From a bacterium (GTDB taxonomy: Bacteria; UBA8248), in NCBI GenBank assembly GCA_965204535.1, contig OZ241996.1, positions 1,344,001-1,408,000 of the forward strand: a stretch of 64,000 nucleotides of DNA, in the 5' to 3' direction. Of this stretch, positions 3,405 to 63,129 are shown piece after piece. The position numbers and the translations under genes were made by a program. The notes under the pieces were generated by a model. It ran no database searches and had not been told where the DNA came from. It worked only from the letters and a program-made list of their open reading frames with translations. How positions within the stretch are numbered: position 1 is the stretch's first letter; every line of letters starts with the position of its first letter.

Positions 3405-3959
3405 GTGATACGACTTCGCTTGTTTCCCCAGGGACTGCATGAGGTGAAAAGTTTTGCCGCCGTTTGCATGTTCGCGGTGGAGCATTTTCCGTTTCAAGGG
3501 CGATTGCTGCAAATCGACCGCTTGCTGGAGAGCGAGGTGAGCGGTCTCATCGAGCAGGGCAAATTGAGCGGCGCTTGGGAGTCGCAAGCCATGTTTGCCT
3601 CGAAGGGGCGGCTCGCGCCTGAGTATGTGTTGTTCGCAGGTGTCGGCTCTATGGAGGACTTGACCCTCACAAAGCTCTACCGGCATGCGAAGGATATTTT
3701 TGGAAGGATGATGAGGGCGTCGGCGAAGAATTTATCGATGCAGGTTTCCGGTTTCGCACAGCTTCCCGATGACTTCACTCCCGTGGCCACGGAGATTATG
3801 AACGGTGCGATACGAGGCGTCATCGGAAATCCCTGGGATGTCGATATTCTTGTTTGCGAACCAGATGATGAGAAATATGACGAATTGATTATGCTGAGTG
3901 AGCAAATTGCTTTCAGCAGTGTGAAGAATCGTGAACTCTCCTTGGAGGTTTTGATTTGA
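3405..3959 (+). CDS. Stand-alone peptidase M17 N-terminal-domain-like protein
   Basis: IDRLLESEVSGLIEQGKLSG...GRLAPEYVLFAGVG resembles the non-catalytic N-domain of leucyl aminopeptidases; no catalytic domain; tightly coupled to both neighbours. Confidence 0.55.
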   Translation: MIRLRLFPQGLHEVKSFAAVCMFAVEHFPFQGRLLQIDRLLESEVSGLIEQGKLSGAWESQAMFASKGRLAPEYVLFAGVGSMEDLTLTKLYRHAKDIFGRMMRASAKNLSMQVSGFAQLPDDFTPVATEIMNGAIRGVIGNPWDVDILVCEPDDEKYDELIMLSEQIAFSSVKNRELSLEVLI

Positions 3960-4492
3960 GCGGGGCGCCTTTGAGGATAGTTCACGATATCCGTTTCGCT
4001 CTGCTGCTATGCATTTTTCTGTCAGCGGGCTGCGGCTACGAACTCGAAGGAACCTTACGGCCCAAGAAACTCGAAACAGTGCAGACCATTTCGATATCAC
4101 CATTCCTGAACCATACGGACGAGCCGGGCCTTGGACGCGCCGTTACGAAAGCGATGAGAGGAAGGTTCCTGCGGGACGGCCGCCTCCGGGTTTCCGACTC
4201 TCCCGATGCGGACGTCGCTCTCGAAGGTGTTGTGCGCGAATATCGTCTCTCTCCAATCGGCTTCACCCAGGCTGACAGGGTTCAGCGATACCGCGTCGTG
4301 GTGCGCACGCGAATACGTCTGCACGACAAAGGGCGGAAGAAATTGCTCATCAATCAGGATTTGGAGTCTTATGCCGAATTCGCTGTCTCATCTTCTATTG
4401 CGCAAAGTGACATGAGCCGCTCGAACGCCCATCAACAAGTGGCCGACTCTTTGTCGAAAGACGTCGTCAGCCTTGTGTTAGAGGGTTTTTAG
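3956..4492 (+). CDS. lptE: LPS assembly lipoprotein LptE
   Basis: Lipobox LSAGC followed by GY; PFLNHT.EPGL motif; directly upstream of holA. Confidence 0.82.
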   Translation: MSGAPLRIVHDIRFALLLCIFLSAGCGYELEGTLRPKKLETVQTISISPFLNHTDEPGLGRAVTKAMRGRFLRDGRLRVSDSPDADVALEGVVREYRLSPIGFTQADRVQRYRVVVRTRIRLHDKGRKKLLINQDLESYAEFAVSSSIAQSDMSRSNAHQQVADSLSKDVVSLVLEGF

Positions 4493-4493
4493 A

Positions 4494-5537
4494 TTGGCCT
4501 CGGGCCGAAAAAAGCCAAAAAGTTCTCTGGCAGCGCTCTCCGATGTCCAAAACGCGCCGACGCAACCCGTATACCTTTTGGAAGGCAAAGACTCTTTTTT
4601 GCGGGATGAATACCTGCGCGTCATTCGACGCAAGGTTCTTGGGGACGGGCCGGATGATTTCACCCATGACCGTTTCGACTGGGCCGAGGCCGATGCGCCC
4701 GCCATCATCACCATCGCCCAGACGATGCCGTTTATGGCAGAGAAGCGCCTCATCGAAATCCTCAATTTCACCAGGCCGGGCGAGAGGGATGAGTCCATCT
4801 TTCTCTCTTATCTCGAGCACCCATCCGCGTCCACGGTTCTGGTCTTTTGCGTCGAAAACGTCGACATGCGCACCACTTTCTTCCAACGCCTGGTGAAGGC
4901 GAGCGTGCATTGTCGGGTAGATATCCTGGAGGGGGAGGAATTAAAGAAATGGCTTCACGGGCGCGCCGTGGAGTTGGGGTTCGAGTTGCGACCGGAGGCC
5001 GCCGATATGTTGGTCGCCATGGTCAAACCCTCAATGATGAGGCTCAGCACCGAACTCGAGAAAATCGCTTCCTATTTGATGCCGGGAACGGTGGCCGGTG
5101 CGGAGGAGATTCGCGAAATCGTCGGCCACTCCAGAGAAGAATTGCTCTATAAGCTGGGCGATTCACTCAGCCAGGGGAGTTTGGGTGGAACCCTCGTTCT
5201 CTTGCGCCGGATGATGGAAACCGAACATCCCGTCGTTTTCATCGGGTTGTTGCGTAATTTGATTCGGCGTTGGACGATTTCAAAGTCCTTGATTAGAAGT
5301 GGCCGGGGCGCCCAGGGAATCTCTCAGACGCTGGGTCTGCAGCCCTTTGTGGCGAGGAGGCTCGAGAGTCAGGTCAGGGGATTGCGTTCCGCTTACTTGC
5401 GCGAGTTATACGGGAAGCTGCTTCAGGTGGACCGCAAGCTCAAGCGGACGAGCGACATGAAGGTCGCCCGTCAGACGCTGGAATTGTTTTTGGTGGATGT
5501 GCGATCCTCCAGAAGCGGGCCGCACAAGGTTGTTTAG
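4494..5537 (+). CDS. holA: DNA polymerase III delta subunit
   Basis: PVYLLEG, TMPFMAEKRL, ELEKI and D..LK motifs; lptE-holA-rpsT synteny. Confidence 0.9.
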   Translation: MASGRKKPKSSLAALSDVQNAPTQPVYLLEGKDSFLRDEYLRVIRRKVLGDGPDDFTHDRFDWAEADAPAIITIAQTMPFMAEKRLIEILNFTRPGERDESIFLSYLEHPSASTVLVFCVENVDMRTTFFQRLVKASVHCRVDILEGEELKKWLHGRAVELGFELRPEAADMLVAMVKPSMMRLSTELEKIASYLMPGTVAGAEEIREIVGHSREELLYKLGDSLSQGSLGGTLVLLRRMMETEHPVVFIGLLRNLIRRWTISKSLIRSGRGAQGISQTLGLQPFVARRLESQVRGLRSAYLRELYGKLLQVDRKLKRTSDMKVARQTLELFLVDVRSSRSGPHKVV

Positions 5538-5795
5538 TTATTTCGAAGAGGCCGCATGAACCCGCTTGGCCAATCTTCCCGCGTGTCTCGACGCTGTTTT
5601 TTTGTGGATAATTCCTTTGGTGGCTGCGCGATCCAATTGCGACTGGGCTTTTCTCAGCAACTCTTCGGGGTTTTCTTCGCTATTCGCCAGGACTTGTTTG
5701 ATGGTATTGCGAAATTGAGTCCGAATAGCGCGGTTTCTGGCGCGGCGAACGATATTCTGGCGATTGCGCTTCTTGGCCGAACGAATATGTGGCAA
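5538..5795 (-). CDS. rpsT: 30S ribosomal protein S20
   Basis: TTG start with GGAGA RBS; SAKKR.RQ...R.RN and KGIIHKKTASR motifs. Confidence 0.96.
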   Translation of the reverse strand: MPHIRSAKKRNRQNIVRRARNRAIRTQFRNTIKQVLANSEENPEELLRKAQSQLDRAATKGIIHKKTASRHAGRLAKRVHAASSK

Positions 5796-5858
5796 TTTGT
5801 TTCATTCTCCGTAAAGATGGTTGAAATGTCTCTCTTGAGGCTGTTTCACAGCCCCGGT

Positions 5859-5886
5859 AAAATACCACGGAACAAAGGGTTGTCAA
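5859..5886 (-). promoter_or_regulatory. Putative sigma70 promoter for rpsT
   Basis: Minus strand TTGACA-16 nt-TATTTT with TG just upstream of the -10 element. Confidence 0.5.
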
Positions 5887-5913
5887 GCTCACCGCCCTGG
5901 TGTCAGGAACCCT

Positions 5914-7593
5914 GTGACCACGCCACCTGAATCCTCTAATCCGGGACGAGAAGAAAATACTTTTGCCGCTGCGCCGGCAGGGAATGGCGATTCCTCGCCG
6001 GAGGAGAGTATTTCCAGGTTTGCGGGTCCCGTTAGCTTGGCCACTCTCCTCAGTCGCGTTGCGGGTTTTTTCCGGGATTTGCTCATCGCCAAATTTTTTG
6101 GCGCCGCGATGATGGCCGATGCCTTTTTTGTCGCATTTGCGATTCCCAATCTTTTCAGGCGCATGTTCATGGAAGGGGCTCTGAGTTCCTCGTTTCTTCC
6201 TGTTTACTCCGATGTGCGAGAGCAATCCGGGATCAAAGAAGCAAAAAAATTCGCCGGCGGCATGTTGGTGTTTCTCATCTTCGCAGGGAGTGCGGGCTGC
6301 GCGATAGGGATTTGGTTCGCTGACCCTTTGATGAGAGTGCTGGCGCCTGGTTTTTCGAGCAACCCGGAAAAACTGGATCTCGCGGCGCAACTCACCAGAA
6401 TTATGTTTCCGTTCATTGTTTTTATCGGGCTGTGGGCGGTCGCAGCCGGTATGTTGAACGCGGCGCGCCGCTTTTTCGTGCCTGCTTTCGCACCCGCGCT
6501 CCAGAACGTGGTTATCATCTTTGCTCTTTTGCTGGCGGATTTTTGGGCAAACAGGGCGGAAGCCATCCGTTGGCTCGCCTGGGCCGTCGTCATTGGCGGG
6601 GCGACGCAGTTTTTCTTCCAACTCCCCTTCATGGGGAAATTGCGAATTTTACCGCTTCCCTCTATTCCCTGGAGGGTGGAGGGTGTCGGTAGATGCCTGG
6701 CGCTGATGGGGCCGGCGGCTCTTGGCGGTGTTGTTTTTCAGGTCAATGTTCTCGTTGACAGGTGGCTGGCTTCGTTCCTGGCGGAAGGCTCCATTTCTTA
6801 TCTCTACTATGCGAACCGATTGGTTCAGCTCCCTCATGGCATATTGAGTCTCGCGGTGGTGTCCGCCGTTTTGCCGGTTTTGTCTGATTATGCGGCGCAA
6901 AACAGGGAAAATTCTGTATCGGGAGATTCCGAGCGGGGCGCCATGCTCGAGGCGGGGAGGCTGACGCTGTTCATCACCATTCCCTCTTCATTCGGCCTGA
7001 TGGTTTTAGCCCACCCGATCATGGAGGTTATTTTCGAGCGGGGCGCCTTTACGCAAAGCCATACCGCTGCGAGCGCAGCCGCTTTGCGGGCGTATGCGGC
7101 AGGGTTGATGTTTTTCGGGATCACGAGACTTTTGGCCGGGGTGTTTCACGCTCGATTGAACACGAGTTTTCCGGTGAAGTGCGCCAATATCACTGTCCTC
7201 GCCAACGTGGTACTCAGCGTCGCCCTGATGTTCCCTCTCGGGTTTATCGGCCTCGCGCTCGCCACGTCGTGCTCAAGCGCCTTAAACGCGGTGCTGTTGC
7301 TGCGGGGCGTCATGCGCGAGTGGAGCGATTTTCCGAAAAAGGAGTTGGCTCATTCCCTGAGCAGGCTTCTGGTGCTTGGAATCTTGACGGGGGTTCTCGC
7401 ATATTTCATCCATCTGCAACTCGTTCATCTGCAATTGTGGGATGCGCAGCACTCGTCGGCCCTTAAATTGGCGATGATGATGCTCGAGGTATCCCTGGCC
7501 GCCTGCTTCTATATTTTCATGGCGAAAAAAATCGATGCTTCTTCATATGAAACCTGGTGCCGTTTCACTCGCCTCACATGGAGAAAATCTTGA
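5914..7593 (+). CDS. murJ: Lipid II flippase MurJ
   Basis: SRVAGFFRD, ADAFFVAFAIPNLFRRMFMEGA and LYYANRLVQLP motifs; many TM helices. Confidence 0.95.
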   Translation: MTTPPESSNPGREENTFAAAPAGNGDSSPEESISRFAGPVSLATLLSRVAGFFRDLLIAKFFGAAMMADAFFVAFAIPNLFRRMFMEGALSSSFLPVYSDVREQSGIKEAKKFAGGMLVFLIFAGSAGCAIGIWFADPLMRVLAPGFSSNPEKLDLAAQLTRIMFPFIVFIGLWAVAAGMLNAARRFFVPAFAPALQNVVIIFALLLADFWANRAEAIRWLAWAVVIGGATQFFFQLPFMGKLRILPLPSIPWRVEGVGRCLALMGPAALGGVVFQVNVLVDRWLASFLAEGSISYLYYANRLVQLPHGILSLAVVSAVLPVLSDYAAQNRENSVSGDSERGAMLEAGRLTLFITIPSSFGLMVLAHPIMEVIFERGAFTQSHTAASAAALRAYAAGLMFFGITRLLAGVFHARLNTSFPVKCANITVLANVVLSVALMFPLGFIGLALATSCSSALNAVLLLRGVMREWSDFPKKELAHSLSRLLVLGILTGVLAYFIHLQLVHLQLWDAQHSSALKLAMMMLEVSLAACFYIFMAKKIDASSYETWCRFTRLTWRKS

Positions 7594-13193: not shown

Positions 13194-15878
13194 ATGTCCT
13201 CTCCTAAAGGCGCCCTGCAAGCCAAGAAAGAAAAAAATACATCCGGCAAAAGTAGCCCTGGCCCTTCTCCTGCGATGCGCCAATATCTGGAAATGAAAAG
13301 ACGCTATCCGGACGCGATACTGTTTTTCCAGTTGGGTGATTTTTTCGAAATGTTCTATGAAGACGCGAAACTCGGGGCGAAAGTGTTGGAACTCGCGTTA
13401 ACGTCGCGCCAGAGTGATGACAAGGGACCTATCCCGATGTGTGGTGTGCCTTGCCATTCGGCCTCTTCATACTGTGGGCGATTGCTGGAAGCGGGCTATA
13501 AAGTCGCCATATGTGAGCAGGTGGAAGACGCAAGAGAAAGTAAGGGAGTTGTAAAACGTGAGGTAACTCGCGTCCTGACCCCAGGCACTTCGATTGCCGA
13601 CCTAGAGTTACTTGATAGCAAGGAATCTCAATACTTGGCGGGGATCACCGTATCGGCCAGAGAAGGAGAGACGCTTTGGGGAATGGCATGGCTCGATAGT
13701 TCGACCGGTGAGTTTTGTGCAACGCAGGTGGAAGGCGATTCTGCCGAGACGCTGATTTGCAATCAATTGGAGAGGCTCTCTCCTCGTGAACTTATTTTCC
13801 CAGATGCATTTTCCCCTCCAGATGGGTTGAAAAACAAAATTGATGAGCTAAGCATTCATATTGAAAAAAGACCGGACGCCACTTTTTGCGAGTCACTTGA
13901 TGCCAAAAGCCTGGGTTCCACATTTGCGGATGAAGCGAATGTTCTGGCGTATCCGGTAGCAGCAGATTCCGCCGTAGGTGTTTTAACGTATCTCAAAGAA
14001 AACCAGCCTGGAGATTTTCCCCATCTCAAGCCTGTCTTTTTCTCTAGACTCTCAGACTCCATGATTCTCGATACAGCCACGTTGCGAAATTTAGAAATTA
14101 CCCGTCCGGCAGTGGATCGGGGGAAACGGGGCACTCTGTTCGGTTTGCTGGATGAAACGTCAACGGGTATGGGGGGACGGCTGCTGAAAAAATGGGTGCT
14201 TTCACCCTTGATTCAAAAAAAAGCCATCGAATATCGCGCCGAATCAGTAGAAGAACTCGTGAACAATTCCGAAATCCTGAATAGACTCAAAAAAGCCCTT
14301 GAACCTATTCAAGATATCGAGCGGCTTCTGGGACGCGTGGGTTCTCAGACTGCGAATGCCCGAGATATAGCTGGACTAGGCGGATCTTTGGCCATGTTGC
14401 CGGAAGTTTGTGAGGCGCTCGAAGGGATGGCTTCTGAATTGTTTTGTTCCGTCCGGTCGGGCTGGGATTCACTCGAGGACGTAGCGTTGGAACTGAAGAA
14501 CGCGATTGTAGATGATCCGCCTGTTTCCATTCGAGAAGGTGGAATATTTCGAACTGATTATGACCCGGTACTTGCCCGCCTGAGAAAGGCGCAGCAGGAG
14601 GGTGATTCGTGGCTCAAGAATTATGAAAGCAGGGAAAAAGAACGAACGGGGCTGTCTCTGAAAATCGGGTTCAACCGCGTTTTTGGATATTATCTGGAGA
14701 TTCCCAAACGCTTCAGTGAGCAGGCACCGATGGAATATACGCGCAAGCAAACCCTCGTTTCTGCCGAGCGATACATTACTTCCGAGTTGAAAAAGATGGA
14801 AGAAGACCTACTCGGCGCGGAGGAAAAAGCCCATCACCTCGAGTTCATGCTTTTCGGGCGCTTAAGAACGCAAATATCTCAACACGCCAAGCGAATACTT
14901 GCCGCCGCCGAGAGGATAGCGATTCTGGATGCCGTTTTGTCCCTTGCGCTCGTTGCGCGCAAATTCGGATATGTCAGACCCCGAATTATGGATTCTACCG
15001 ATCTGGAAATCATGGAGGGGAGGCATCCCGTCATAGAGGCGGAGAATCCTGGCCTCTCTTTCGTGCCGAACGATTTGTCGATCCGTGACGACCGCCGAAT
15101 ACTCATTATCACAGGGCCGAATATGGCCGGTAAATCCACTTACCTGCGTCAAACGGCACTCATCATTCTAATGGCGCAGATTGGCAGTTTCGTACCAGCC
15201 AAGAGCGCGAAAATCGGTTTGGTTGACAGGGTGTTCACTCGCGTTGGTGCGCATGACCGACTTTTGGAGGGGCAAAGCACCTTCATGGTGGAGATGGTGG
15301 AAACGGCCACCATATTAAGAGAGTCGACCCAGAGGAGTTTCATCGTCCTGGACGAGGTCGGGCGAGGTACGAGTACCTATGATGGCGTCAGCATTGCATG
15401 GTCAATTGTTGAGTATCTTCATAACAAGGTCCAGCACAGGGCGAGGACTTTGTTTGCGACTCATTATCATGAGTTGGCCGAACTCTCAAAAGAGCTCGCT
15501 TGCGTGAAAAACTTGACGGTCGAGGTCCGGGAGTGGGGTGATGAAATCGTTTTCTTGCGAAAAGTAACCGATGGCAGTTGCGATAGAAGCTACGGCATTC
15601 AGGTAGGCAGGCTGGCGGGACTTCCGGAAGAGGTTATCGACCGAGCAAAGACGTTGCTCTCTCGGTTTGAGAGTACGGAGACGACCTCTCGTTCCAGCGA
15701 CGAAAAATCTAATTTGGAAAATCGCTGGGGCAATGGGCAATTGCCTTTGTTTTCAGGAACAGAATCGAAAATCGAAAATTTGTTGAAAAGCATCGATCCG
15801 GATTCCATGACACCTCGTCAAGCTCTCGAAACCCTGTATGAACTCAGGGAAATCATGGCAAATGTTGAGCAGCGATAA
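13194..15878 (+). CDS. mutS: DNA mismatch repair protein MutS
   Basis: GDFFEMF, PMCGVP, TGPNMAGKST, STFMVEM, LDEVGRGT and ATHYHEL motifs. Confidence 0.97.
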   Translation: MSSPKGALQAKKEKNTSGKSSPGPSPAMRQYLEMKRRYPDAILFFQLGDFFEMFYEDAKLGAKVLELALTSRQSDDKGPIPMCGVPCHSASSYCGRLLEAGYKVAICEQVEDARESKGVVKREVTRVLTPGTSIADLELLDSKESQYLAGITVSAREGETLWGMAWLDSSTGEFCATQVEGDSAETLICNQLERLSPRELIFPDAFSPPDGLKNKIDELSIHIEKRPDATFCESLDAKSLGSTFADEANVLAYPVAADSAVGVLTYLKENQPGDFPHLKPVFFSRLSDSMILDTATLRNLEITRPAVDRGKRGTLFGLLDETSTGMGGRLLKKWVLSPLIQKKAIEYRAESVEELVNNSEILNRLKKALEPIQDIERLLGRVGSQTANARDIAGLGGSLAMLPEVCEALEGMASELFCSVRSGWDSLEDVALELKNAIVDDPPVSIREGGIFRTDYDPVLARLRKAQQEGDSWLKNYESREKERTGLSLKIGFNRVFGYYLEIPKRFSEQAPMEYTRKQTLVSAERYITSELKKMEEDLLGAEEKAHHLEFMLFGRLRTQISQHAKRILAAAERIAILDAVLSLALVARKFGYVRPRIMDSTDLEIMEGRHPVIEAENPGLSFVPNDLSIRDDRRILIITGPNMAGKSTYLRQTALIILMAQIGSFVPAKSAKIGLVDRVFTRVGAHDRLLEGQSTFMVEMVETATILRESTQRSFIVLDEVGRGTSTYDGVSIAWSIVEYLHNKVQHRARTLFATHYHELAELSKELACVKNLTVEVREWGDEIVFLRKVTDGSCDRSYGIQVGRLAGLPEEVIDRAKTLLSRFESTETTSRSSDEKSNLENRWGNGQLPLFSGTESKIENLLKSIDPDSMTPRQALETLYELREIMANVEQR

Positions 15879-16005
15879 CAGCAGGGCCAGGTCACAGCGC
15901 ATAATCCGGAAGTGCTCCACGGACATGAAGCCACGGAAGTCAAACAAGGTATTGAGAGCTTTTTTTATATGCGATAGCATTGAATTTCAAGGCCAAGGGG
16001 AGCAT

Positions 16006-16611
16006 ATGTTATCTAACGCCCGGAAAACATTTGTTCTTAGGAAACTTGCCATAGCCATCTGTATGATTTTCGCTTTGGCGGGGCCGGCGATTTCCGCAAC
16101 AGATAGCCAAGATGGAATTCGGATAAAAGATATTATTGTTATCAAGAAGAATGGGCAGTTGCTTGTTTTTGGTTCTCTTTTGGGTGCATTTTCGACGAAA
16201 TTGTTGGAAGCTATTCATAGCGGTGTGACTACGAAGTTTATTTTTGACGTAAGTCTCTTTCGCTCTCGCAAGCTGATTTATGATTTGGAAGTCACCTCGC
16301 GGCAATTACATCACCAAGTGAAATATAGCGCCTTGAAAAAAACATACACTTTTCATCTCAAAGAAGGGGAAAAAGAGATCGAGAGAAAAGTGACGAAAAG
16401 CCAAGGCGAAATGACGGACTGGATGCGCGAGCTGAATGGCGCGCCCATTGCCCCTGGCAAGGTCTTGCCCCCAAATAGTCGATACTATGTCAAAATCAGA
16501 GCGCGGATGAATCATGTGGATTTTGTTTTTCCCTTTAATTACTTGCTTGCTTTTTGGGGGAAGCAGTCTGATTGGAGCTATTCCCAGACATTTAGTTCTG
16601 AAGGAATGTGA
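16006..16611 (+). CDS. DUF4390-like exported protein
   Basis: ATG after GGGGAG; signal peptide; EAIHSGV...F pattern; position immediately upstream of an ntrY-like kinase. Confidence 0.72.
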   Translation: MLSNARKTFVLRKLAIAICMIFALAGPAISATDSQDGIRIKDIIVIKKNGQLLVFGSLLGAFSTKLLEAIHSGVTTKFIFDVSLFRSRKLIYDLEVTSRQLHHQVKYSALKKTYTFHLKEGEKEIERKVTKSQGEMTDWMRELNGAPIAPGKVLPPNSRYYVKIRARMNHVDFVFPFNYLLAFWGKQSDWSYSQTFSSEGM

Positions 16612-16614: not shown

Positions 16615-18876
16615 GTGCATCCAACGCGACTGAATCAGGAGATCTCTTCGCGCCGACGAAGAACACTTCTGCGATCCTTCATCGCTTTGATCATCATTGC
16701 GACTCTTTCGTTTACGGCTTGGATTTACTTCAAAGAGCTTGAGCCGGAAGTCCCACTGTTAAACAATGTTGTCGTATTTGCGCTAGTGAATCTGAGCATC
16801 ATTTTGCTCATGGTGGTTATTCTCCTGGTAGCAAAGCACTTGGTGCGTCTTTACTACGAGGGGAGAACGGGTGCCGGTCGTTCACGCTTGCAATTAAAAC
16901 TCGTATTGGCGTTTGTCGGATTTACGCTCATCCCTGTAGTGGCTCTTTTCGTGGTGGCCAGCGGTTTGATTAACCAAAGTTTTAATGCTTTGTTCAACAT
17001 GAACGTGGAGAGAGCGCTCAAAGGCTCTTTCGAAGTGGCTCAAACGTATTATCGCGAGGTGGAGCGAAACACGCTGTTCAGCGCGAGTCGCCTTGCGCTG
17101 ACGTTGGAGAAGACACGACCTAATATAATAACGAACTCCAAGGCGGCTGAAAAAACATTGGAGGCCGAGAGAAAGAACTTGGGGGTGGATTTCATCCAAC
17201 TCTACGATAGGGAGCGGAAGGAGATCGTATCGGTCAGGCGCCCGGGGTTGGCGCAAGCCACAACGTTTTCGCCACTGGTGGGATACGTAGATCAAGTGAT
17301 TGATGGGGAGTCGCGCTCAAGTATAGAGAATTGGGAAAAAGGAGATGTCATCTATGGCGTGGCGCCTTTGAAGAGTCAAAAAAAAGTGGTGGGGTTTATC
17401 GTCGTATCCAAATACGTGCCTGATCGACTTGTGGCGAAGATCAGAGGCATATCGGACTCCTTTGTGAACTATAAAGAGTTGGAACTGTCCAAGAATCCAA
17501 TCAAAGCAAACTACATCATTACTTTCTTGGTGGTTACTTTGCTCATTCTCTTTGCGGCCATCTGGTTCGGCTTCTACCTCGCTCGAGGGATTACGGTTCC
17601 CATCGAGAAATTGGCGGAAGCTACAAGGGCGGTGTCGGATGGCAACCTCGAACATCGCGTGGATGCGCAGGCAGATGGCGAAGTGGGGATTTTGGTCAAC
17701 GCATTTAACAGCATGACGGAAGAATTGTTGGCCAACAAGGAAAAAATCGAAGAATCTTCTGAAATCTTGAGCCGTTCCAACCTGGAAATCGACAGAAGAC
17801 GCAGGTATATGGAAGCGATGCTTGAAAATATCGGAGCGGGTGTAATATCAATCAATCGCCGAGGGCGCGTTACTATCCTCAACAAAGCAGCCGGGGAGTT
17901 GCTGAGGATTGAACCGCAGAATGCCGTAGGGCAAATGTTCAGCGAGGTTTTCGAAAGCACACATCTTGAGCCTGTTCGTCAGTTGATGCGCTCTATGCGA
18001 GCCCGAGAACACCAAAGCGCTTCGGAGCAAGTGGAGGTCATGATTGATGGCCGTGTGCTGACACTACGCGCGAGCTTGACTCTGCTGAAGAGCGCAGATG
18101 GCGGCAGACTTGGTGCCGTCATTGTGTTTGATGACATGACGGCTTTGATACGGGCTCAAAAAGTGGCCGCATGGCAGGAAGTGGCCCGTGGCATCGCGCA
18201 CGAGATCAAAAATCCACTTACGCCGATTCAACTTTCTGCTCAGAGAATGAGACGAAAATTTGATAATGAGGCCTATGATTTTACCGAAGTATTTGAATCT
18301 TGCACGGATACTATTATCAATCAGGTAACAAGCCTGATTGATATGGTGGATGAATTCAGCCGATTCGCTCGCATGCCGGAGCCGAGATTGAGGCTCTGCG
18401 GGTTTGTCCCCCTCATTGAGGATGTTGCAAATTTATATCGTGGCAGGAAGGGGGATGTGAAATTTTCGATTCATATCGATGTTGGGAATACTGCTGTCAT
18501 GGCGGATCCCGAGCAGTTGCAGCGCGTGTTTATCAATTTGTTGGAAAATGCCTTTGAATCCCACGATGTCGAGGGCGAGATTGATTTGCAAGCGTGGAGT
18601 GATAAAGACAGAAATATGATAGTTGTTGAAGTGGCCGACCAGGGGCAAGGTATATCGGAAGATGTGAAAGGCCATATATTCTCGCCTTACTTTTCGACAA
18701 AGGATAGAGGCACCGGGTTGGGTTTGGCTATATGTCAGCGCATTGTGGCGGATCACAATGGAACAATAGGCGTGCGAGATAACCATCCGTCTGGTTCCAT
18801 TTTTCGCGTAACATTGCCACTGGCGCCTGCTGTGGACATCACGCCCGAAAAGCAAAGGACGGCTTCCATTGGATAA
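16615..18876 (+). CDS. NtrY-like sensor histidine kinase (TMs, periplasmic domain, HAMP, PAS, HisKA, HATPase)
   Basis: AAWQEVARGIAHEIKNPLTPIQLSAQR H-box typical of NtrY; NLLENA, DQGQG and GTGLGL boxes. Confidence 0.92.
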   Translation: MHPTRLNQEISSRRRRTLLRSFIALIIIATLSFTAWIYFKELEPEVPLLNNVVVFALVNLSIILLMVVILLVAKHLVRLYYEGRTGAGRSRLQLKLVLAFVGFTLIPVVALFVVASGLINQSFNALFNMNVERALKGSFEVAQTYYREVERNTLFSASRLALTLEKTRPNIITNSKAAEKTLEAERKNLGVDFIQLYDRERKEIVSVRRPGLAQATTFSPLVGYVDQVIDGESRSSIENWEKGDVIYGVAPLKSQKKVVGFIVVSKYVPDRLVAKIRGISDSFVNYKELELSKNPIKANYIITFLVVTLLILFAAIWFGFYLARGITVPIEKLAEATRAVSDGNLEHRVDAQADGEVGILVNAFNSMTEELLANKEKIEESSEILSRSNLEIDRRRRYMEAMLENIGAGVISINRRGRVTILNKAAGELLRIEPQNAVGQMFSEVFESTHLEPVRQLMRSMRAREHQSASEQVEVMIDGRVLTLRASLTLLKSADGGRLGAVIVFDDMTALIRAQKVAAWQEVARGIAHEIKNPLTPIQLSAQRMRRKFDNEAYDFTEVFESCTDTIINQVTSLIDMVDEFSRFARMPEPRLRLCGFVPLIEDVANLYRGRKGDVKFSIHIDVGNTAVMADPEQLQRVFINLLENAFESHDVEGEIDLQAWSDKDRNMIVVEVADQGQGISEDVKGHIFSPYFSTKDRGTGLGLAICQRIVADHNGTIGVRDNHPSGSIFRVTLPLAPAVDITPEKQRTASIG

Positions 18877-21001
18877 GGGACATGTGCTTATCGTCGATGA
18901 TGAGCGTGAAATACTCGTGAGCCTGGAAGATGTCTTGCTGGATGAAGGGTATCGCGTAGAACGGGCCGAGTCCGGAGAAACTGCTCTTCAGTTGGTCCGG
19001 ACCGAAGCTCCCGATGTGGTTCTGGTTGATGTGTGGATGCCCGGCATTGATGGAATCAAAACTTTACAAGCAGTGAAAGAGTCCAACGCAGATATCGAAG
19101 TCGTCCTGATGTCGGGCCACGGCAATATTGAGACCGCAGTGGCCGCAACAAAGTCAGGAGCTTTTAATTTCATTGAAAAACCTCTATCCATTGATACGGT
19201 TTTGCGCATAGTCGATTCCGCCGTTCAAGCGCGAAGGGCCAAGGATATTAAGGCGAATAATGTTGGCGACGTGATACTTGACGGTGCCAGCAAGCATGTT
19301 CAGAGGGTTCGAAGAGCAATCAGGAGAGCGGCGAAAGATATTGGGCCCTTGCTGATCGCAGGTGAAAGGGGAACCGGCAAGCGTTTTATCGCAAGGGCGA
19401 TCCACGAGAACGGCGCCGGAAAAGAAGAAGGCTTTCGGCCTGTTCATTGCCGTTCGCTGTTTCCAATGGCGGAGATATGCGAATGGGAAGATGCCCTGGA
19501 GCGGCTGGTGCCCGATACCTTTCAAGGGACTATATATCTGGATGGTCTGGAACAGTTGCCCATAGCGGAGCGTGGAAAATTTCTTGTTCAATTTCTTGAG
19601 CGCATAGAGGATTCAAAGCGTTTAATCGTATCCGTTGATTACATAGGAACTCCAAAGGATAAGGCTTACGTGGAAGCCTTATCTGATAAAATTGGCGCGG
19701 ATGTAATACACTTGCCCCCTTTGCGCGAACGCAAAGGGGATATTTTGCCGTTAGCAAACAGATTCTTGAGTGAATGCGTTGAAGTTGGCGGGCATGAAAA
19801 GGAATTTCCTGAGGATGTCATTGCGGTTCTGGAGGACTATGACTGGCCGGGCAATATTGCTGAATTAAAAGGTGCAGTGACCAAAGCGGCATCCACATCG
19901 CAAGGATCGGAGATTCACATCGACCACTTGCCGGACACGATACGCGAGGCTTCTGATTTCGAGGTGAGCACATCAAAAAACGATACCCCGTCCAATTTTA
20001 ATGTGGCCAGAACGCAGTGGGAGAGACAGTACCTTGCCTTCCATTTGGAGGAGCACGGTTGGGACATCAATAAGACCGCCAAGGCGGTGGGCATGACGAA
20101 ACCTGCTTTAATGCGAAAAATTAAAACATACAATATAGAACCCATATTGCCGGCGTCGACGACGCTAAGGGAATCAAATCAGAGGAGCATTTCGAAAAGT
20201 GTCGTATTGTATGGCCGGGGGCTTCACTCAGGGCTGAAAACCGGATTGATCATCGAGCCTCTGCCACCGGGGAGCGGGATACAATTCGGCAACCTGACAA
20301 GCCCCGATACTGTGAGGGCGAGTGTCGATTTCGTGGATGGCACCAACCATGCGACAAACTTGCGCAATGGGACTGTGACTGCTCGAACAATTGAGCATCT
20401 CATGAGCGCGCTGCACGCATATAAGATAAGCAATATACTCATCAAAATGAGTGAGGAAGTGCCCGTCATGGATGGGTCGGCAGTGGAGTTTTGTCTCTTG
20501 CTTGAAGAAGCAGGCATTGAAGATCAGGAAGAAAAACGCGAGGACTTGTGGATTGATAAGGTATATGAGGTAGGTGAACCGAATGACGGAAAGGGCTACG
20601 TTCGTATCGAGCCGGCGGATTCTTTTTCGGTTTCATACCTTATTGATTATCCTAAACCGATTGGGAAGCAAACCTACGTGTATGAGCACAAGAATGCATT
20701 GGGTTTTCAGGAAGAAATCGCACCGGCCCGTACTTTTGGTTTTGTCAATGAGTTGGAGTCGCTCGAAAAAATGGGCTTGGCCGAGGGAGGTCGTTGGGAT
20801 AACGTGATTCTCGTGGACAAAGCACGCGTTGTGAATACCCGATTGCGATTTCCCAATGAGTTCGTTCGCCATAAAATTCTTGACGTGATCGGAGATCTGT
20901 ATTTAACCGGTCGTCCCGTCCGAGGAAAAGTAACCGCTGAGAGAAGTGGACACCGACATAATGTAGCTTTGGTCAAGAAATTGATGGAAGTCCATGGCTG
21001 A
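18869..21001 (+). CDS. lpxC: Fusion of an NtrX-like response regulator (REC, degenerate AAA+, HTH) with UDP-3-O-acyl-GlcNAc deacetylase LpxC
   Basis: Single 710-aa ORF: DDE, D54(VWMP), MSGHG and EKP receiver motifs; GERGTGK; WPGN; then QRSI...GRGLHSG, TIEHLMSAL, EVPVMDGS, IAPARTFGF, RFPNEFVRHKILD and SGH. Confidence 0.92.
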   Translation: MDKGHVLIVDDEREILVSLEDVLLDEGYRVERAESGETALQLVRTEAPDVVLVDVWMPGIDGIKTLQAVKESNADIEVVLMSGHGNIETAVAATKSGAFNFIEKPLSIDTVLRIVDSAVQARRAKDIKANNVGDVILDGASKHVQRVRRAIRRAAKDIGPLLIAGERGTGKRFIARAIHENGAGKEEGFRPVHCRSLFPMAEICEWEDALERLVPDTFQGTIYLDGLEQLPIAERGKFLVQFLERIEDSKRLIVSVDYIGTPKDKAYVEALSDKIGADVIHLPPLRERKGDILPLANRFLSECVEVGGHEKEFPEDVIAVLEDYDWPGNIAELKGAVTKAASTSQGSEIHIDHLPDTIREASDFEVSTSKNDTPSNFNVARTQWERQYLAFHLEEHGWDINKTAKAVGMTKPALMRKIKTYNIEPILPASTTLRESNQRSISKSVVLYGRGLHSGLKTGLIIEPLPPGSGIQFGNLTSPDTVRASVDFVDGTNHATNLRNGTVTARTIEHLMSALHAYKISNILIKMSEEVPVMDGSAVEFCLLLEEAGIEDQEEKREDLWIDKVYEVGEPNDGKGYVRIEPADSFSVSYLIDYPKPIGKQTYVYEHKNALGFQEEIAPARTFGFVNELESLEKMGLAEGGRWDNVILVDKARVVNTRLRFPNEFVRHKILDVIGDLYLTGRPVRGKVTAERSGHRHNVALVKKLMEVHG

Positions 21002-22786: not shown

Positions 22787-23515
22787 TTGCGCAAATTGAG
22801 TTTTTTCATACTGGTATTCGGTTTTTCGTTTTTCGCATTTTTGCAAGAGTACGCTCTCGCCGCGTCTATGGCGGAAGAATCGCGTCCAAAGGCGGAGAAA
22901 ATAATCACCGAACTTCAGAAAAAATATGACACACTTGAATCTCTGCAAGCCTCATTCGAGCAGAAAAATGAATTGAAGTCCCTCGGGCGAACGACGACGT
23001 CGAGCGGAACCCTGTTGTGGAAGAAGCCCGGCAGACTCCGCATGGAGTACGTTACGCCTGAAAAGCAACTCCTGGTTTCCGATGGCCACACGTTTTGGCT
23101 CTACACCGCTCGCTTCAAGCAGGTGATGGTTTCCAAAACCGGGGGCTTTGGGTTTGGCGCCACTCCTTTGTTATTTTTGTCAGGAAAGGGGAATTTGAAA
23201 AAGAATTTTCATGTAACTGTGGAAGAGGTTGGAATTGCCGAACGAAGCGGGGGGATTTGGAGGGCCGGTCAGCCCCATCGCATTCGCATGGAGCCGAAGG
23301 CTGCGAGCGCTTCGTTTCGCCGAATGTGGATCGAAGTGGAGCCTGAAAATTTCAGGATCCTCACTCTGGTTTATATTGATAACATCGGCAACAAGAGCCA
23401 TCTGCGGTTTTCAAATATCAAAGAAAACGTCAGAATCACAAGAGAGGAATTTCGATTTATCGTGCCGCCGAACGTCGAAGTTCTGCAAATGCCGTCTCAC
23501 AGTGGCCAGCGATAA
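22787..23515 (+). CDS. lolA: Outer-membrane lipoprotein carrier LolA
   Basis: Signal peptide; ASFEQ, KKPGRLRMEY..PEKQLLVSDG and F.F.VP.NVEV motifs. Confidence 0.85.
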   Translation: MRKLSFFILVFGFSFFAFLQEYALAASMAEESRPKAEKIITELQKKYDTLESLQASFEQKNELKSLGRTTTSSGTLLWKKPGRLRMEYVTPEKQLLVSDGHTFWLYTARFKQVMVSKTGGFGFGATPLLFLSGKGNLKKNFHVTVEEVGIAERSGGIWRAGQPHRIRMEPKAASASFRRMWIEVEPENFRILTLVYIDNIGNKSHLRFSNIKENVRITREEFRFIVPPNVEVLQMPSHSGQR

Positions 23516-23524
23516 AGGATTCTT

Positions 23525-24730
23525 TTGAAAATGGCGATGCAAGTCATAAACTGGGTGATGGGTTTTGGGCAGACGATTTTCTGGGCTGTGCTGGTTCTCG
23601 GATTGCTCATCTTTATCCATGAACTGGGCCACCATCTCGTCGCGAAATGGCTCAAAATCGGCGTTTCCACGTTTTCCTTGGGTTTCGGGTGCCGCATCTG
23701 GGGTTTTCAGCGGGGAGAGACTGAATATCGCGTGTCCCTGATCCCTTTGGGCGGTTATGTGAAGCTCGTGGGGGAAGACCCCGAAGCACAACCTGATAAT
23801 CCCGATATTCCCAAAGAACCGGATGAGCCGGAGAAATCATTCTACTTGCGGCCTGTGAGTCACCGATTGGCTGTGATTTCGGCGGGGCCTTTGTTTAATG
23901 TCGCCTTGGCGATACTCCTCAGTTGGGGGTTGCACCTTGGAGGTATTCCCGTCCCTGGAACGTGGGTCGGCGGTGTTTTGCCCGATACGCCTGCACAAAA
24001 GGCGACCCTTCAAGCAGGCGATCACATCGTTGCCATCGATGGGAAGAGGATTCAGAAATGGTCCGAGCTTGTCGAAATTATACGAAGAAACGCCGATAAT
24101 AAACTCGTTTTGACGGTGGAACGCGGCCGCAAATCCTTTGAAACGTCGATCATTCCGACATCGAAGAGTGCGACGGGCAAGGAGTTGGGTTATGGCCGAA
24201 TCGGTATCAGTATCGGTCAAGGCACTTACACCGAGCGTTTTGGCTTTTTTGAGTCCCTGGGGAAGGGATTCGAACAGAATTACCGCATCGCCAGCTTAAC
24301 GGTCATTACGCTGTATTCGATGCTCACGAAGACCATTCCGGCGGACATTGGCGGCCCGATTCGTATTTCTGTGGTGGCCGCGGAGCAGGCGCAACGCGGG
24401 TTCCGCTATCTCATCATGTTTACGATTTTACTCAGCATTAACCTGGCGATTTTGAACTTGTTGCCAATCCCGGTTCTCGATGGCGGGCATATTTTTTTCT
24501 TGCTTATCGAAGCCTTGCGTGGCAAACCTATCAGCCTCAGGGTCCGAGAGGTGGCCATGCAGGTCGGCACCGTTCTTCTCATCGGTTTGATGATCTTTGC
24601 TACCTACAAGGACAGCGTGTATTATCTTTTTGGGAGGGACTCGGCAACGATAACGAAAAAAGAAGAGCAAAAGGGAAAAAGTAGGGATACAATGAAATTA
24701 TCTCCTGAAAGCCAGAAAGGCGGCAAATAG
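23525..24730 (+). CDS. rseP: RIP metalloprotease RseP
   Basis: HELGH, FSLGFG, IPLGGYVK, AGPLFN, a PDZ domain and NLLPIPVLDGG. Confidence 0.95.
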   Translation: MKMAMQVINWVMGFGQTIFWAVLVLGLLIFIHELGHHLVAKWLKIGVSTFSLGFGCRIWGFQRGETEYRVSLIPLGGYVKLVGEDPEAQPDNPDIPKEPDEPEKSFYLRPVSHRLAVISAGPLFNVALAILLSWGLHLGGIPVPGTWVGGVLPDTPAQKATLQAGDHIVAIDGKRIQKWSELVEIIRRNADNKLVLTVERGRKSFETSIIPTSKSATGKELGYGRIGISIGQGTYTERFGFFESLGKGFEQNYRIASLTVITLYSMLTKTIPADIGGPIRISVVAAEQAQRGFRYLIMFTILLSINLAILNLLPIPVLDGGHIFFLLIEALRGKPISLRVREVAMQVGTVLLIGLMIFATYKDSVYYLFGRDSATITKKEEQKGKSRDTMKLSPESQKGGK

Positions 24731-28352: not shown

Positions 28353-29840
28353 ATGACCTCGGACACCTCGCAAACAAATCCACTTAAAATAAAAAAACGA
28401 TTTGAAGCCAAGGTGAGAAAAGGCCTCCAGAAATCGGCTTATGCGGCCGAGTCTGCCCCTTTGATGGTCGGTTTTTCCGGTGGCGCAGATTCCACGGCTC
28501 TTTTGTTGTCCTTGAAGTCGATCCTGCCGGAATCACAACTCCTGTGTGCCGTTCATATCGAACATGGACTCCGTGGCGGTCTTTCAAAAAAAGATGCTGA
28601 GCATGCTGAGCAGGTGTGTTTGCGACACGATATCGATTTTCGTTGTGAGCACGTTCATGTGTCTCGAACAGCGCAATTGGGTCTTGAAGGAGCTGCCCGC
28701 GAATCAAGGCGCTCGGCCTTCCTGACGATTGCGAAGGAGATGGGCGCTGATACCATCGCGTTGGCCCACAACAGGGATGATCAAGCCGAAACCGTGCTCA
28801 TGCGTTTATTTGAAGGGGCAGGCGTCAGGGGGATGGGAGGTATGAAGTGGAGGACCCCGCTTTCGTCGAAAGGAGAAGATGCGTTCCACATCATCCGGCC
28901 TTTACTGGATTTGTCGCGTGAGGAGATTTTGGAGTACTTGGAGATACTGGGCATCTCCTGGGTCGAGGATGAAACGAATCTGGACGAGAGTCGCCTCAGA
29001 AATCGGATACGCAAAAAAATTATGCCGATGGTTCGGGAGCACTTGGGGGATGCGGCCATTAGCGGAATCGCCAAGAGTGCGGAGATATCGGCCCCGCTTG
29101 TTTTCCTGATGGATGAAATGTCCAAGGAATTGACGGTGAAATTCATCCATAAAGACAACGGGAAACTCGTTGTTTCTCCTTTAGGGGCAGTGAAGGAACT
29201 CGCTCAATCGCTTAGAGCGGAGGTTTGGCGTGCGGCACTTGCAATGCTCAGAGGCGAATCGCCCGCCCAAACCGGCAGACGCGCTCTCCGGGAATGGATT
29301 GAAGGCCTGGATCGCCTGGCAATGGGAGATAAACCCTCGGGTGTGTTGAGTTTGCCGGGCGGCCTGGAAGCGAGAAAGGAATATGACCGCCTTATCTTCG
29401 GGAGTTCCCTTGTTGATTCGAAGTTGCTTGAGGAGAAAAAACTGCGGGTTCCAGGAAAGACGGTTCATCATTCACTAGGCCTTGCGATAGAAGCATCATG
29501 TCATTTTACACATCGTTCAAACGGCGCATGGGAGGTGTGTCTCGACCTGGAAAAGCTGGGGGCGGATGCCTGTATCCGAACCCGGCGTGATGGAGATCGG
29601 TTCCATCCATTGGGACGAACAAAAGCGAAGAAACTCAAGGATTACCTCATAAAGCGGAAAATACCGAAATCCGTAAGGAATCGAATACCTCTCCTGGCCG
29701 TAGGAGGTAAGGTGGCATGGATCATAGGTCATCAGGTTTCAGCGGAATTCGTGCTTGATGGGAATGAGAAGAGGGGGGTTACCCTTAAAGCGTTGCTGGA
29801 GAATGAAGACAGTAAGCTCTTAAGTTCTTTGGGTTATTGA
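28353..29840 (+). CDS. tilS: tRNA(Ile)-lysidine synthase
   Basis: SGGADS PP-loop, AHNRDDQAET, IRPLL, RNRIR and C-terminal GDRF...KKLKD. Confidence 0.95.
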   Translation: MTSDTSQTNPLKIKKRFEAKVRKGLQKSAYAAESAPLMVGFSGGADSTALLLSLKSILPESQLLCAVHIEHGLRGGLSKKDAEHAEQVCLRHDIDFRCEHVHVSRTAQLGLEGAARESRRSAFLTIAKEMGADTIALAHNRDDQAETVLMRLFEGAGVRGMGGMKWRTPLSSKGEDAFHIIRPLLDLSREEILEYLEILGISWVEDETNLDESRLRNRIRKKIMPMVREHLGDAAISGIAKSAEISAPLVFLMDEMSKELTVKFIHKDNGKLVVSPLGAVKELAQSLRAEVWRAALAMLRGESPAQTGRRALREWIEGLDRLAMGDKPSGVLSLPGGLEARKEYDRLIFGSSLVDSKLLEEKKLRVPGKTVHHSLGLAIEASCHFTHRSNGAWEVCLDLEKLGADACIRTRRDGDRFHPLGRTKAKKLKDYLIKRKIPKSVRNRIPLLAVGGKVAWIIGHQVSAEFVLDGNEKRGVTLKALLENEDSKLLSSLGY

Positions 29841-29932
29841 TTTGGAGTTTAGCTCGTAGACGGATGGGAAAAATCCTGATAACGTGTTTTCAGGGTTTAG
29901 AGAGCCGCTTACGCGAGAAAAAGGAAGGCATT

Positions 29933-31852
29933 TTGAATCAATTTTACAAGAATTTGGCGCTTTGGCTGATTATCGGGTTGATAATGGTTGGTTTGTTTCA
30001 AGCCTTCAATAGCCCGCGCTCAACCGACCGAACGGTTGTCTACAGCGATTTCCTGCAAGCGGTATCTGATGGACAGGTGACCGAAGTGATCGTCCAGGGA
30101 GACAATATTCGAGGTCGCTACCTGAGCGGCAGGTCCTTTCATACCCATGCTCCCAAAGACCCGAAGCTGATCGACACACTCAGAGCCAAGGGCGTTCGCA
30201 TCACGGCGCAGCCCGTAGAACAAAACTCCTGGTATATGAACATGCTGTTGAGTTGGCTGCCTATGCTGGTGATGCTGGGCGTTTGGATTTTCTTCATGCG
30301 CCAGATGCAAATGGGCGGCTCCAAAGCTCTGTCGTTCGGAAAAAGCAAAGCGCGAATGATGCCCGAATCTGCGAAGAAAAAGATTACGTTCGCAGATGTG
30401 GCCGGTATCGAGGAAGCCAAGGAAGAACTTGAAGAACTCGTTGATTTTCTCCGCGACCCGCAGAAGTTCACGCGCCTGGGCGCGCGTATTCCCAAGGGTG
30501 TCCTGATGGTTGGGCCTCCGGGCACGGGCAAAACCTTGCTGGCGCGGGCCATCGCGGGTGAAGCGGACGTGCCGTTTTTCTCGATAAGCGGATCGAGTTT
30601 TGTGGAGATGTTTGTCGGGGTCGGGGCGTCGAGAGTCCGGGATTTGTTCGAGCAGGGCAAAGCAAATGCGCCTTGCATCATTTTCATCGATGAGATTGAT
30701 GCTGTCGGGCGACACAGGGGCGCCGGCCTGGGAGGTGGTCACGATGAGCGCGAGCAAACGCTCAATCAACTTCTCGTCGAGATGGATGGTTTTGAGTCGA
30801 ATGACGGGGTCATCCTGATGGCAGCGACGAACCGGCCGGACGTGCTGGATCCGGCTTTGCTCAGGCCAGGCCGCTTTGACCGCCAGATTGTCGTTTCCTT
30901 GCCAGATATTAAAGGGCGCTTGGCCATTTTGAAGGTGCATGCCGTAAAGGTGCCGCTCGATGAATCCGTCGATTTGAGTCTCATCGCGCGCGGAACCCCG
31001 CGATTTGCGGGCGCTGACTTGGCGAATCTTTTGAACGAATCCGCACTTCTCGCGGCGCGCCGGGGAAAACAGTCCGTTGAAAACGAAGACTTGATGGAAG
31101 CGAAGGATAAAGTCTTGATGGGCAAGGAGCGGCGCAGCATGGCGCTCAGCGAAAAAGAGAAGAAAAACACGGCCTACCACGAAGCGGGGCACGCCCTTGT
31201 TTCATTACTGATACCCGGGACGGACCCGGTAGAGAAGGTAACGATCATCCCGCGTGGTTTTTCGTTGGGAAGTACATGGTCCTCTCCTCTTGAAGATCGT
31301 TACAGCAACGACAAGACATTTTTAACGAACCAGCTTGCCTGCCTGATGGGTGGACGTGCGGCAGAGATGTTGGTCTTTGAAGAATTGACGACAGGGGCGA
31401 AAGCAGATATCCAGACGGCGACCGACCTGGCGAGAAGTATGGTTTGTGAATGGGGGATGAGCGAAAAACTCGGTCCTTTGGCGTATGGGAAAAAGCATGA
31501 GCAGATCTTTTTGGGCCGTGAAATCTCCCAGCACAGGGATTATAGCGACCAGGTGGCCTTGGAAATTGATAACGAAGTGAAGGATATGGTCTCGTCGAGT
31601 TATGAGAGAGCGTATAAGTTACTCGAGGAAAATCGGGACAAGCTCGATTTGCTCGCCAATGCGCTACTCGAGTATGAAACCATCGATCTCAAAGACATCG
31701 AGTCTTTGATGGAAACCGGGGAGATTTCCAGGAGTCGCAAGCGAAAAGACGGGGTTGGTGAGGGAAAGACCCCTGTCTCTTCTGAACCGGAGGAAAAACC
31801 TCGCGAGGATCCGCAAGGGTCACCGACGGACCTGGCGCCCGGCCAAGCCTAG
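29933..31852 (+). CDS. ftsH: ATP-dependent zinc metalloprotease FtsH
   Basis: TTG start giving [11 protein letters not shown]; [23 protein letters not shown] and HEAGH motifs. Confidence 0.97.
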
Positions 31853-34698: not shown

Positions 34699-34887
34699 GA
34701 TATTTCTTCTTTACAAAGAAACGAAAGGGTGGCACTCTTACAGGGCATTGTTTTTGCTTATCTTCTTGATGTAACAGATGGAAACGGTACGAGAAAATAA
34801 ATTTCATGGTTCTGGAGGGATGAGTTTCTTATCGCAGATATGACATGTGCTGTCGTTGAATACCGCCTGTGCTTCAGAAGGTTTGCG

Positions 34888-35499: not shown

Positions 35500-35537
35500 A
35501 GGGGCACATACGGCCAATCCCCTGTTGGAGGGCTGTT

Positions 35538-36131: not shown

Positions 36132-36135
36132 ACTC

Positions 36136-36900: not shown

Positions 36901-36916
36901 GGTGAGGGAAATCCAC

Positions 36917-59876: not shown

Positions 59877-60072
59877 GCCTTTCCCCTTTCTCTGAAACGT
59901 AAAAAACTTTTCCTCATTCCTAGATGCGCTTAATGTAACGATGGCGGCGAAAACGCGCCACCCGCTCCATCCATTGCGCCATTGTGCATCCGCGCATAGA
60001 ATCCGGGCGTCTCAACTGCCACTTGAGATTACACAACAGACTTTTATTTCTTTTCATGCGAAGGAAAAATTC

Positions 60073-62988: not shown

Positions 62989-63049
62989 AACCTGTCCTGC
63001 AGCGGCATCAACTCCACCTATGACACGGCAAACGGACAGCATTTCGGTT

Positions 63050-63126: not shown

Positions 63127-63129
63127 GCT

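Follow-up and report, generated by a model that had tools for sequence, protein, structure and literature searches.

A single gene in a 64,000-nucleotide stretch of a bacterial genome (GTDB lineage UBA8248; assembly GCA_965204535.1, contig OZ241996.1, positions 1,344,001 to 1,408,000 of the forward strand; hereafter "the window") joins a response-regulator receiver domain to the lipid A biosynthesis enzyme LpxC. This receiver-LpxC fusion is real, conserved, and widespread. Judging from its domains and residues, the protein is built like a response regulator with an enzymatic output, in which receiver and catalytic domain share one chain. Because the only lpxC gene of the genome is joined to a receiver and lies directly behind the gene for an NtrY-type sensor kinase, it is reasonable to propose that the kinase switches lipid A synthesis at the level of the enzyme. 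Specifically, we assign a probability of roughly 0.6 to the reading that the adjacent NtrY sets the phosphorylation state of residue D54 in the receiver, that this would switch the activity of the attached LpxC by direct contact, and that control of LpxC has thereby moved from the promoter to the enzyme. The features concerned, in window positions, are as follows.

15838..16611, + strand: DUF4390 (PlrP-like) protein (Pfam PF14334)
16615..18876, + strand: NtrY-type membrane sensor kinase, 753 aa (NtrY_N, HAMP, PAS, HisKA, HATPase)
18869..21001, + strand: ntrX-lpxC fusion gene, 710 aa, TTG start, single open frame
18884..19210, + strand: receiver, aa 6-114 (Pfam Response_reg PF00072, E 3e-28)
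19283..19963, + strand: decayed sigma-54-activator AAA+ domain and lid, aa 139-365 (Pfam, motif check)
20015..20131, + strand: Fis-type helix-turn-helix (HTH), aa 383-421 (Pfam HTH_8 PF02954, barely above cut-off)
20132..20179, + strand: variable HTH-LpxC linker in which neither a start codon nor a ribosome-binding site is conserved; predicted local distance difference test (pLDDT) score <50 at aa 427-432
20180..20986, + strand: complete LpxC deacetylase domain, aa 438-706, and short C-terminal tail (Pfam PF03331, TIGR00325)
20204..20446, + strand: stretch with the fusion-specific surface residues V446, Y448, G459, I461, L524, and K526, on strands of LpxC domain I in the model

An initial annotation of this DNA had described one uninterrupted frame of 710 amino acids, which is borne out, and had named receiver and LpxC residues that a sequence check and an alignment to solved LpxC place exactly where they were reported. 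The TTG start of the frame shares 8 nt with the 3′ end of the kinase gene. The receiver carries D10, D11, E12, D54 (nt 19028-19030), S82-G-H-G, and K104-P105, and so has the acidic pocket, the aspartate acceptor, and the Ser/Thr and Lys switch residues (D10, D11, D54, S82, K104). The LpxC part scores 278 bits against PF03331 (cut-off 27), covering 267 of 268 model positions, and 241 bits against TIGR00325 (cut-off 187). Its catalytic and zinc residues E509, H510, H668, K669, D672, and H695 align with the motifs of solved LpxC; they correspond to E78/H79, H238/K239/D242, and H265 of the E. coli enzyme. The predicted structure of this part superimposes on solved LpxC chains with a root-mean-square deviation of 1.6-2 Å for most entries and TM-scores of 0.82-0.95. 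By every sequence test run the protein is an LpxC, and deacetylase activity is predicted.

The regulator half is recognizable in the same manner. Pfam assigns aa 139-285 to Sigma54_activ (a weak, partial match) and aa 286-365 to AAA_lid_14, and the best of the regulator models is that for NtrX (NF051870), which the protein matches at 248 bits, below the cut-off of 600. All three regulator domains fold well in the predicted structure and match Brucella NtrX entries, with 5m7n as the best sequence match in the PDB. On these comparisons the fusion protein is NtrX-derived, though it falls below the family cut-off. The full-length model has a predicted TM-score (pTM) of 0.53 and is uninformative on contacts between the halves, because the regulator half alone could yield that value.

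It could be argued that a lost stop codon or a misassembly has joined two genes, or that LpxC is made separately from an internal start, and we regard the chance of such an artefact as negligible. In three of four public sequencing runs, drawn from four studies, one contig bridges the junction around positions 20100-20200, and no indel was found in any. Of the listed runs that contain the gene, those with a label are sponge metagenomes, plus one marine metagenome, and none is an RNA dataset. Because independent contigs cross the HTH-LpxC junction without indels, and because hundreds of homologues are fused, misassembly or loss of a stop codon can be ruled out. The statement of the initial annotation that neither a stop nor a convincing ribosome-binding site precedes LpxC also stands, since 31 related loci share no conserved internal start. 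The in-frame start candidates within the 25 codons before LpxC are M415 and L427, neither with a Shine-Dalgarno-like core; this 25-codon stretch holds no ATG, GTG, or TTG in 13 of the 31 loci, and a start together with such a core in one. On these sequence grounds an internal LpxC start is rejected. On the other side stands one related genome, G009, a 490-contig assembly in which the receiver lies in a different frame from the AAA-HTH-LpxC part, beside an apparent short duplication. A further exception, G028, has its frame break within LpxC.

The fusion is the sole LpxC match in the host genome (95.7% complete), and lpxA, lpxB, and lpxK are located elsewhere, an indirect sign that the protein would deacetylate UDP-3-O-acyl-GlcNAc. 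Across the phylum, 50 of 51 genomes have an LpxC match, which is full-length in 45 and only partial in five, and none has a second full copy; all 45 full-length matches sit in open frames of 356-755 aa. Among 39 phylum loci inspected, the receiver is in frame with LpxC in 37, one is cut by a contig end, and one is the broken G009 locus. The phylum search gave no LpxC match in G003, a genome that is 93% complete.

The same architecture extends well beyond this phylum. Both the receiver and LpxC Pfam families are present in 116 of the best 120 homologues, and a near-complete receiver plus LpxC was found in 300 of 422 collected proteins, many of them close kin. These comprise 173 long forms resembling the one described here and 127 short forms; receiver-LpxC proteins without AAA+ and HTH, which the initial annotation had missed, are thus common. 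D54 is retained in 298, K104 in 299, and the six LpxC catalytic residues in all 300. Retention of D54 spans lineages down to about 35-40% identity, including loci with no adjacent kinase. Source labels on the relatives include Nitrospinae/Nitrospinota, Tectomicrobia, Schekmanbacteria, Deltaproteobacteria, Thermodesulfobacteriota, Binatia, Bdellovibrionales, and Spirochaetota, the last being the only organism label retrieved for 20 distant fusions.

The kinase gene upstream has an intact H-box (H529 within HEIKN), and its product is likely to be the cognate kinase/phosphatase of the fused receiver, as judged from gene order and motifs. Of 36 fused genome loci, 34 have this kinase gene immediately before the fusion (two further loci are cut before LpxC). 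The DUF4390 gene precedes ntrY in fused and unfused loci alike; its probable true start is at 16006, and its N-terminus, read by eye, resembles a signal peptide. Among 38 loci with an unfused ntrX-like gene, lpxC directly precedes DUF4390-ntrY-ntrX in seven. The order lpxC-DUF4390-ntrY-ntrX is seen in the unfused, deltaproteobacterial records L067, L070, L071, L072, L080, L082, L085, and L169. A search for the sigma-54 promoter pattern gave a single weak match upstream of seven unfused lpxC genes and none in five stretches of the window, and scans for sigma-70 promoters and terminators gave results at chance level. Two orphan receiver-LpxC genes (L051:3498-4832 and L052:8001-9359) each follow a radical SAM gene in the vicinity of a Sir2 gene, and their loci gave no kinase match.

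Selection on the parts of the fusion is uneven. Ratios of nonsynonymous to synonymous substitution rates (dN/dS), pooled over 20 same-genus loci with 125-160 of 190 pairs usable per domain, are 0.055 for both the receiver and LpxC, 0.22 for the AAA+ core, 0.14 for the lid, 0.13 for the HTH, and 0.25-0.69 for the linkers, the highest value falling on the HTH-LpxC linker (aa 425-436). The AAA+ domain keeps Walker A, with R replacing the usual E after the Lys, and the W-x-G-N motif of the lid. The GAFTGA loop is deleted, and the Walker B glutamate, the arginine-finger motif, and the sensor II arginine are lost. Among 70 long fusions, GAFTGA is retained in 0, Walker B DE in 5, the arginine-finger motif in 0, and the sensor II arginine in 5; the corresponding counts for 35 unfused relatives (three broken or cut ones excluded) are 27, 35, 31, and 35. 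In the clade of the fusion itself, Walker B DE, arginine finger, and sensor II Arg are each retained in 0 of 22. The possibility that the protein is an intact sigma-54 activator is rejected, given the missing GAFTGA and the lost ATPase motifs. This decay does not reflect loss of sigma-54, because the genome retains rpoN and also encodes two further enhancer-binding proteins whose GAFTGA is intact (G000:C2:2431144-2432055 and 2908098-2909444). Altered GAFTGA loops with intact ATPase motifs already occur in the unfused proteins L065, L066, L069, L070, L072, L082, and L085.

LpxC itself also appears to have changed in the fused proteins. In a comparison of 64 fused with 96 stand-alone LpxCs, the positions that differ alternate along neighboring strands of domain I. 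A polar residue is found at positions 446, 459, and 461 in 1, 0, and 4% of fused versus 76, 89, and 83% of stand-alone proteins, and Lys occupies position 526 in 98% versus 2%. In a second set of sequences, which may overlap the first, G459 and K526 are present in 21 of 21 fused proteins and in 2 and 1, respectively, of 55 stand-alone ones. Because these positions are polar in stand-alone LpxC, and in light of the strands in the model and the known LpxC fold, we infer that they are on the solvent-exposed side of this sheet and remote from the active site. This outer face (V446, G459, I461, K526) is therefore a candidate docking site for the receiver.

One sequence offers a natural comparison. 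P0209 (on five contigs, up to 35.8 kb) is a stand-alone LpxC that lies inside the fused branch, has R/F/E/L at positions 446/459/461/526, and retains the clade markers Y518 and C542 despite its reverted face. No relatives of P0209 were found in the metagenome collection. Modeling of a short form gave a pTM of 0.69, in a run without controls, for a protein in which LpxC makes up about 0.61 of the chain and the linker contributes 50 disordered residues; that the value exceeds the LpxC share hints, weakly, at a fixed arrangement of receiver and LpxC. In an underpowered covariation analysis of receiver against LpxC columns (300 rows, with an effective number of 87), the top cross-domain pairs exceeded a neighbor-swapped control, but they involve buried residues and resemble shared ancestry.

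A tree of LpxC domains, built from 87 of 164 eligible rows with 77 stand-alone rows left out, places all fused LpxCs on one branch (SH-like approximate likelihood ratio test, SH-aLRT, 99), apart from 19 stand-alone sequences that include the seven adjoining ntrYX. A FastTree analysis with 111 rows gave the identical split. Long and short forms require at least seven changes on the tree, and a single clade of short forms is rejected (approximately unbiased, AU, test p 1.5e-11). One short form (P0054/L026) arose within the host genus and retains the last HTH residues as a scar, and the HTH is missing along with the AAA+ domain in the short forms that were aligned. Because of such HTH scars and the decayed state of the AAA+ domain, the inferred direction is repeated loss of AAA+ and HTH with the receiver kept. 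Probably a kinase/regulator system governing the transcription of lpxC, in many cases encoded beside it, fused once with its target, after which control of LpxC would have shifted from the promoter to the protein. Because the unfused order places lpxC first, such a fusion required a rearrangement.

The initial annotation had overlooked that a two-component system dedicated to lpxC has been described in Desulfovibrio. In D. vulgaris, lpxC is the single target of the sigma-54 regulator DVU2934, and loss of the kinase in D. alaskensis raises lpxC alone (PMC3333781, PMC4045070). The system examined here resembles DVU2931/DVU2934 and Dde_3000/Dde_3003 in pairing a kinase with an NtrC-family regulator, whose only known target in those species is lpxC. 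That work also points out that in Syntrophobacter the orthologous operon comes right after lpxC, which matches the lpxC-first order in 7 of our 38 unfused loci. The Desulfovibrio regulator, in contrast, is a separate sigma-54 activator that acts on the lpxC promoter, whereas here the regulator shares one chain with LpxC and has lost its sigma-54 motifs (a contrast drawn from the published descriptions).

The broader NtrY/NtrX (PlrS/PlrR) family shares with the fusion locus the DUF4390-ntrY-ntrX order, the HEIKN motif, a receiver-AAA+-HTH arrangement without GAFTGA, and a link to the envelope (PMC7240162, PMC13001219). In Bordetella, HEIKN is the sign of a bifunctional kinase/phosphatase whose phosphatase activity is held in check by PlrP, the DUF4390 protein (PMC13001219). 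Rhodobacter sphaeroides without NtrYX shows an 8.8-fold rise in lpxC mRNA and a twofold rise in lipopolysaccharide (LPS), effects that were judged indirect (PMC7240162). The outputs known for NtrY/NtrX are transcriptional, and none carries an enzyme, whereas the fusion carries LpxC.

Control of LpxC by bound partners is also established. LpxC responds allosterically to two proteins, MurA, which activates it, and LapB, which inhibits it (PMC12444477, PMC9995270, PMC11046580). The fusion has the same LpxC fold and catalytic residues as the enzymes governed by FtsH/LapB/YejM in E. coli and by MurA in P. aeruginosa, and as LpxC-FabZ, and in such systems a bound partner alters activity (PMC12444477, PMC11046580, PMC9995270, PMC13333357, PMC3087551). 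Unlike MurA or LapB, the putative partner in the fusion is covalently attached and is a phospho-switch receiver. The host genome has FtsH and a LapA-domain gene. The short LapB model PF18073 (28 positions) gave 0 matches among 150 of 221 host candidates and 10 of 51 across the phylum; it fires in Gram-positive controls and was not used. The LapA-domain gene (PF06305; 12793-13191, +) is followed in the window by a mutS-like gene instead of lapB, and its position is kept in most fused phylum loci with sufficient flank.

Receivers joined to catalytic domains are familiar from CheB, from PleD/WspR, and from receiver-HD-GYP proteins. The outputs of these proteins are signaling enzymes, whereas that of the fusion would be a committed, normally essential biosynthetic enzyme. 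By analogy, we have borrowed CheB-type relief of inhibition as the model for how the fusion might operate. NtrY, tuned by the periplasmic DUF4390 protein, would both phosphorylate and dephosphorylate D54. The docking site of the receiver would be the outward-facing side of the sheet in LpxC domain I (V446/Y448/G459/I461/K526); an unphosphorylated receiver would restrain LpxC, and phosphorylation would relieve that restraint. Within the model we put this sign at about 60:40, and the notion that phosphate means more LpxC is carried over from the Desulfovibrio system. In the long form, the dead AAA+ domain and the HTH might serve mainly as a spacer or dimer scaffold.

The initial annotation had suggested that the enzyme is itself the output of the two-component system. 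The comparative evidence supports this idea, because lpxC is present only once, the adjacent kinase is intact, the receiver is under the same selection as LpxC, the activator parts have decayed, and the LpxC surface is fusion-specific; a direct effect of phosphorylation on LpxC is a prediction from these sequence patterns. Several observations weigh against the proposal of NtrY-driven switching by direct contact. The kinase is lacking at 2 of the 36 fused genome loci, and among 21 distant fused metagenome loci it is upstream in four, absent from at least 1 kb of flank in 11, and not assessable in six whose flanks are too short. The linkers are long and variable. Reversion of the face is known from one sequence, P0209, and the other three receiver-less sequences inside the fused branch (P0189, P0202, P0208) keep the patch; the contig that carries P0208 is 925 bp long, and P0189 and P0202 appear cut. 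No receiver position was conserved in fused but not in unfused proteins, and no matching receiver face was found. Moreover, since the fusion arose only once, these surface residues could be features passed down within the clade, or could form an interface between LpxC monomers. Finally, purifying selection still acts on the HTH and AAA+ domains of the long form (dN/dS 0.13-0.22), and a preprint describes gene regulation in the absence of GAFTGA by the NtrX of alphaproteobacteria and by Caulobacter NtrC (bioRxiv 2023.06.06.543975).

These last points bear on another explanation, in which the long form does two jobs as a sigma-54-independent DNA-binding regulator that carries an always-active LpxC, with phosphorylation controlling DNA binding, perhaps with feedback from substrate. 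Because of the selection on HTH (0.13) and AAA+ lid (0.14), a remaining DNA-binding role for the long form is possible, and the retained Walker A and W-x-G-N motifs, the well-folded regulator domains resembling Brucella NtrX, and the published GAFTGA-less regulators in that preprint are in keeping with it. Yet 127 of the 300 fusions lack AAA+, and the HTH also where aligned, and retain a perfect phospho-site; AAA+ and HTH have been lost many times, even in the host genus, and the explanation applies to long forms only. We consider it unlikely as a full account. Somewhat less remote, though still well behind the proposal of direct contact, is a role for the receiver in the location or lifetime of LpxC rather than its rate, either by anchoring the enzyme to NtrY in the membrane, close to the lipid A machinery, or through phosphorylation-dependent exposure to a protease such as FtsH. 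Of the regulator parts, the receiver alone is always kept, and the linkers are flexible. The C-terminal tails of fused LpxCs are short (median 17 residues after the last GH versus 39 in stand-alone proteins) and thus leave no room for an E. coli-type tail degron. The genome has two FtsH genes, one of them 9 kb from the fusion, and the YejM N-terminal domain was not found in this 95.7% complete genome. By itself, however, such a role leaves the altered sheet face and the reversion in P0209 unexplained, and many short forms lie away from a kinase gene.

The least probable of these biological alternatives, and one that we would be surprised to see upheld, is a neutral fusion of co-expressed neighbors, with LpxC constitutive and the receiver retained as a folding partner or phosphate sink. 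The adjacency of lpxC and ntrYX in 7 of 38 unfused loci, the loss of the receiver again in at least one lineage (P0209), and the ongoing decay of AAA+ would fit this idea. It accounts poorly for a receiver under selection equal to that on an essential enzyme, for D54 in 298 of 300 proteins across distant lineages, also in the absence of an adjacent kinase gene, and for the lpxC-first order of unfused loci, from which a fusion needed rearrangement.

If phosphorylation does act on the attached enzyme, then the fusion would add to the known modes of LpxC control, which are transcription, proteolysis, and the binding of MurA or LapB. Its long and short forms would then record the conversion of a transcription factor into an allosteric switch on its former target. 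We hold this broader interpretation to be slightly better supported than its negation. The setting of lipid A flux outside enteric bacteria is an open question, and allosteric control of LpxC is named as one in the literature (PMC13333357). The fusion combines, in one protein, a switch (D54) and a candidate allosteric surface on LpxC, itself a target of antibiotics, and the kinase that probably acts on the switch is encoded next to it. Were the proposal correct, NtrYX, a signal-poor family, would gain a single measurable output, and a regulator would have been captured by the product of a gene formerly under its control.

As far as searched, the receiver-LpxC fusion is undescribed: no account of it was found in the literature covered, which takes in few subscription papers. 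The words "fusion" and "fused" are absent from two reviews of LpxC control (2025 and 2026). A 2010 survey names no fusion other than lpxC-fabZ, and the passages of PMC5007114 on Nitrospina LPS genes do not mention the receiver-LpxC fusion.

The fusion gene lies within an extended series of genes for envelope and housekeeping functions (lptE, murJ, lolA, rseP, ftsH, lptC-lptA-ABC ATPase, and rpoN; 3956-7593, 22787-24730, 29837-31852, and 34840-38359, all +). Two frames, at 3405-3959 (+, 184 aa) and 62956-63792 (+, 278 aa), have no Pfam match at E 1e-5. Farther along the window, the gene at 59941-60690 (+) encodes a double YCII-domain protein, and its neighbor at 60708-62168 (-) is a CBS-DUF294 nucleotidyltransferase-like gene. 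The gene at 48158-49393 (+) encodes a protein with three SPOR domains.

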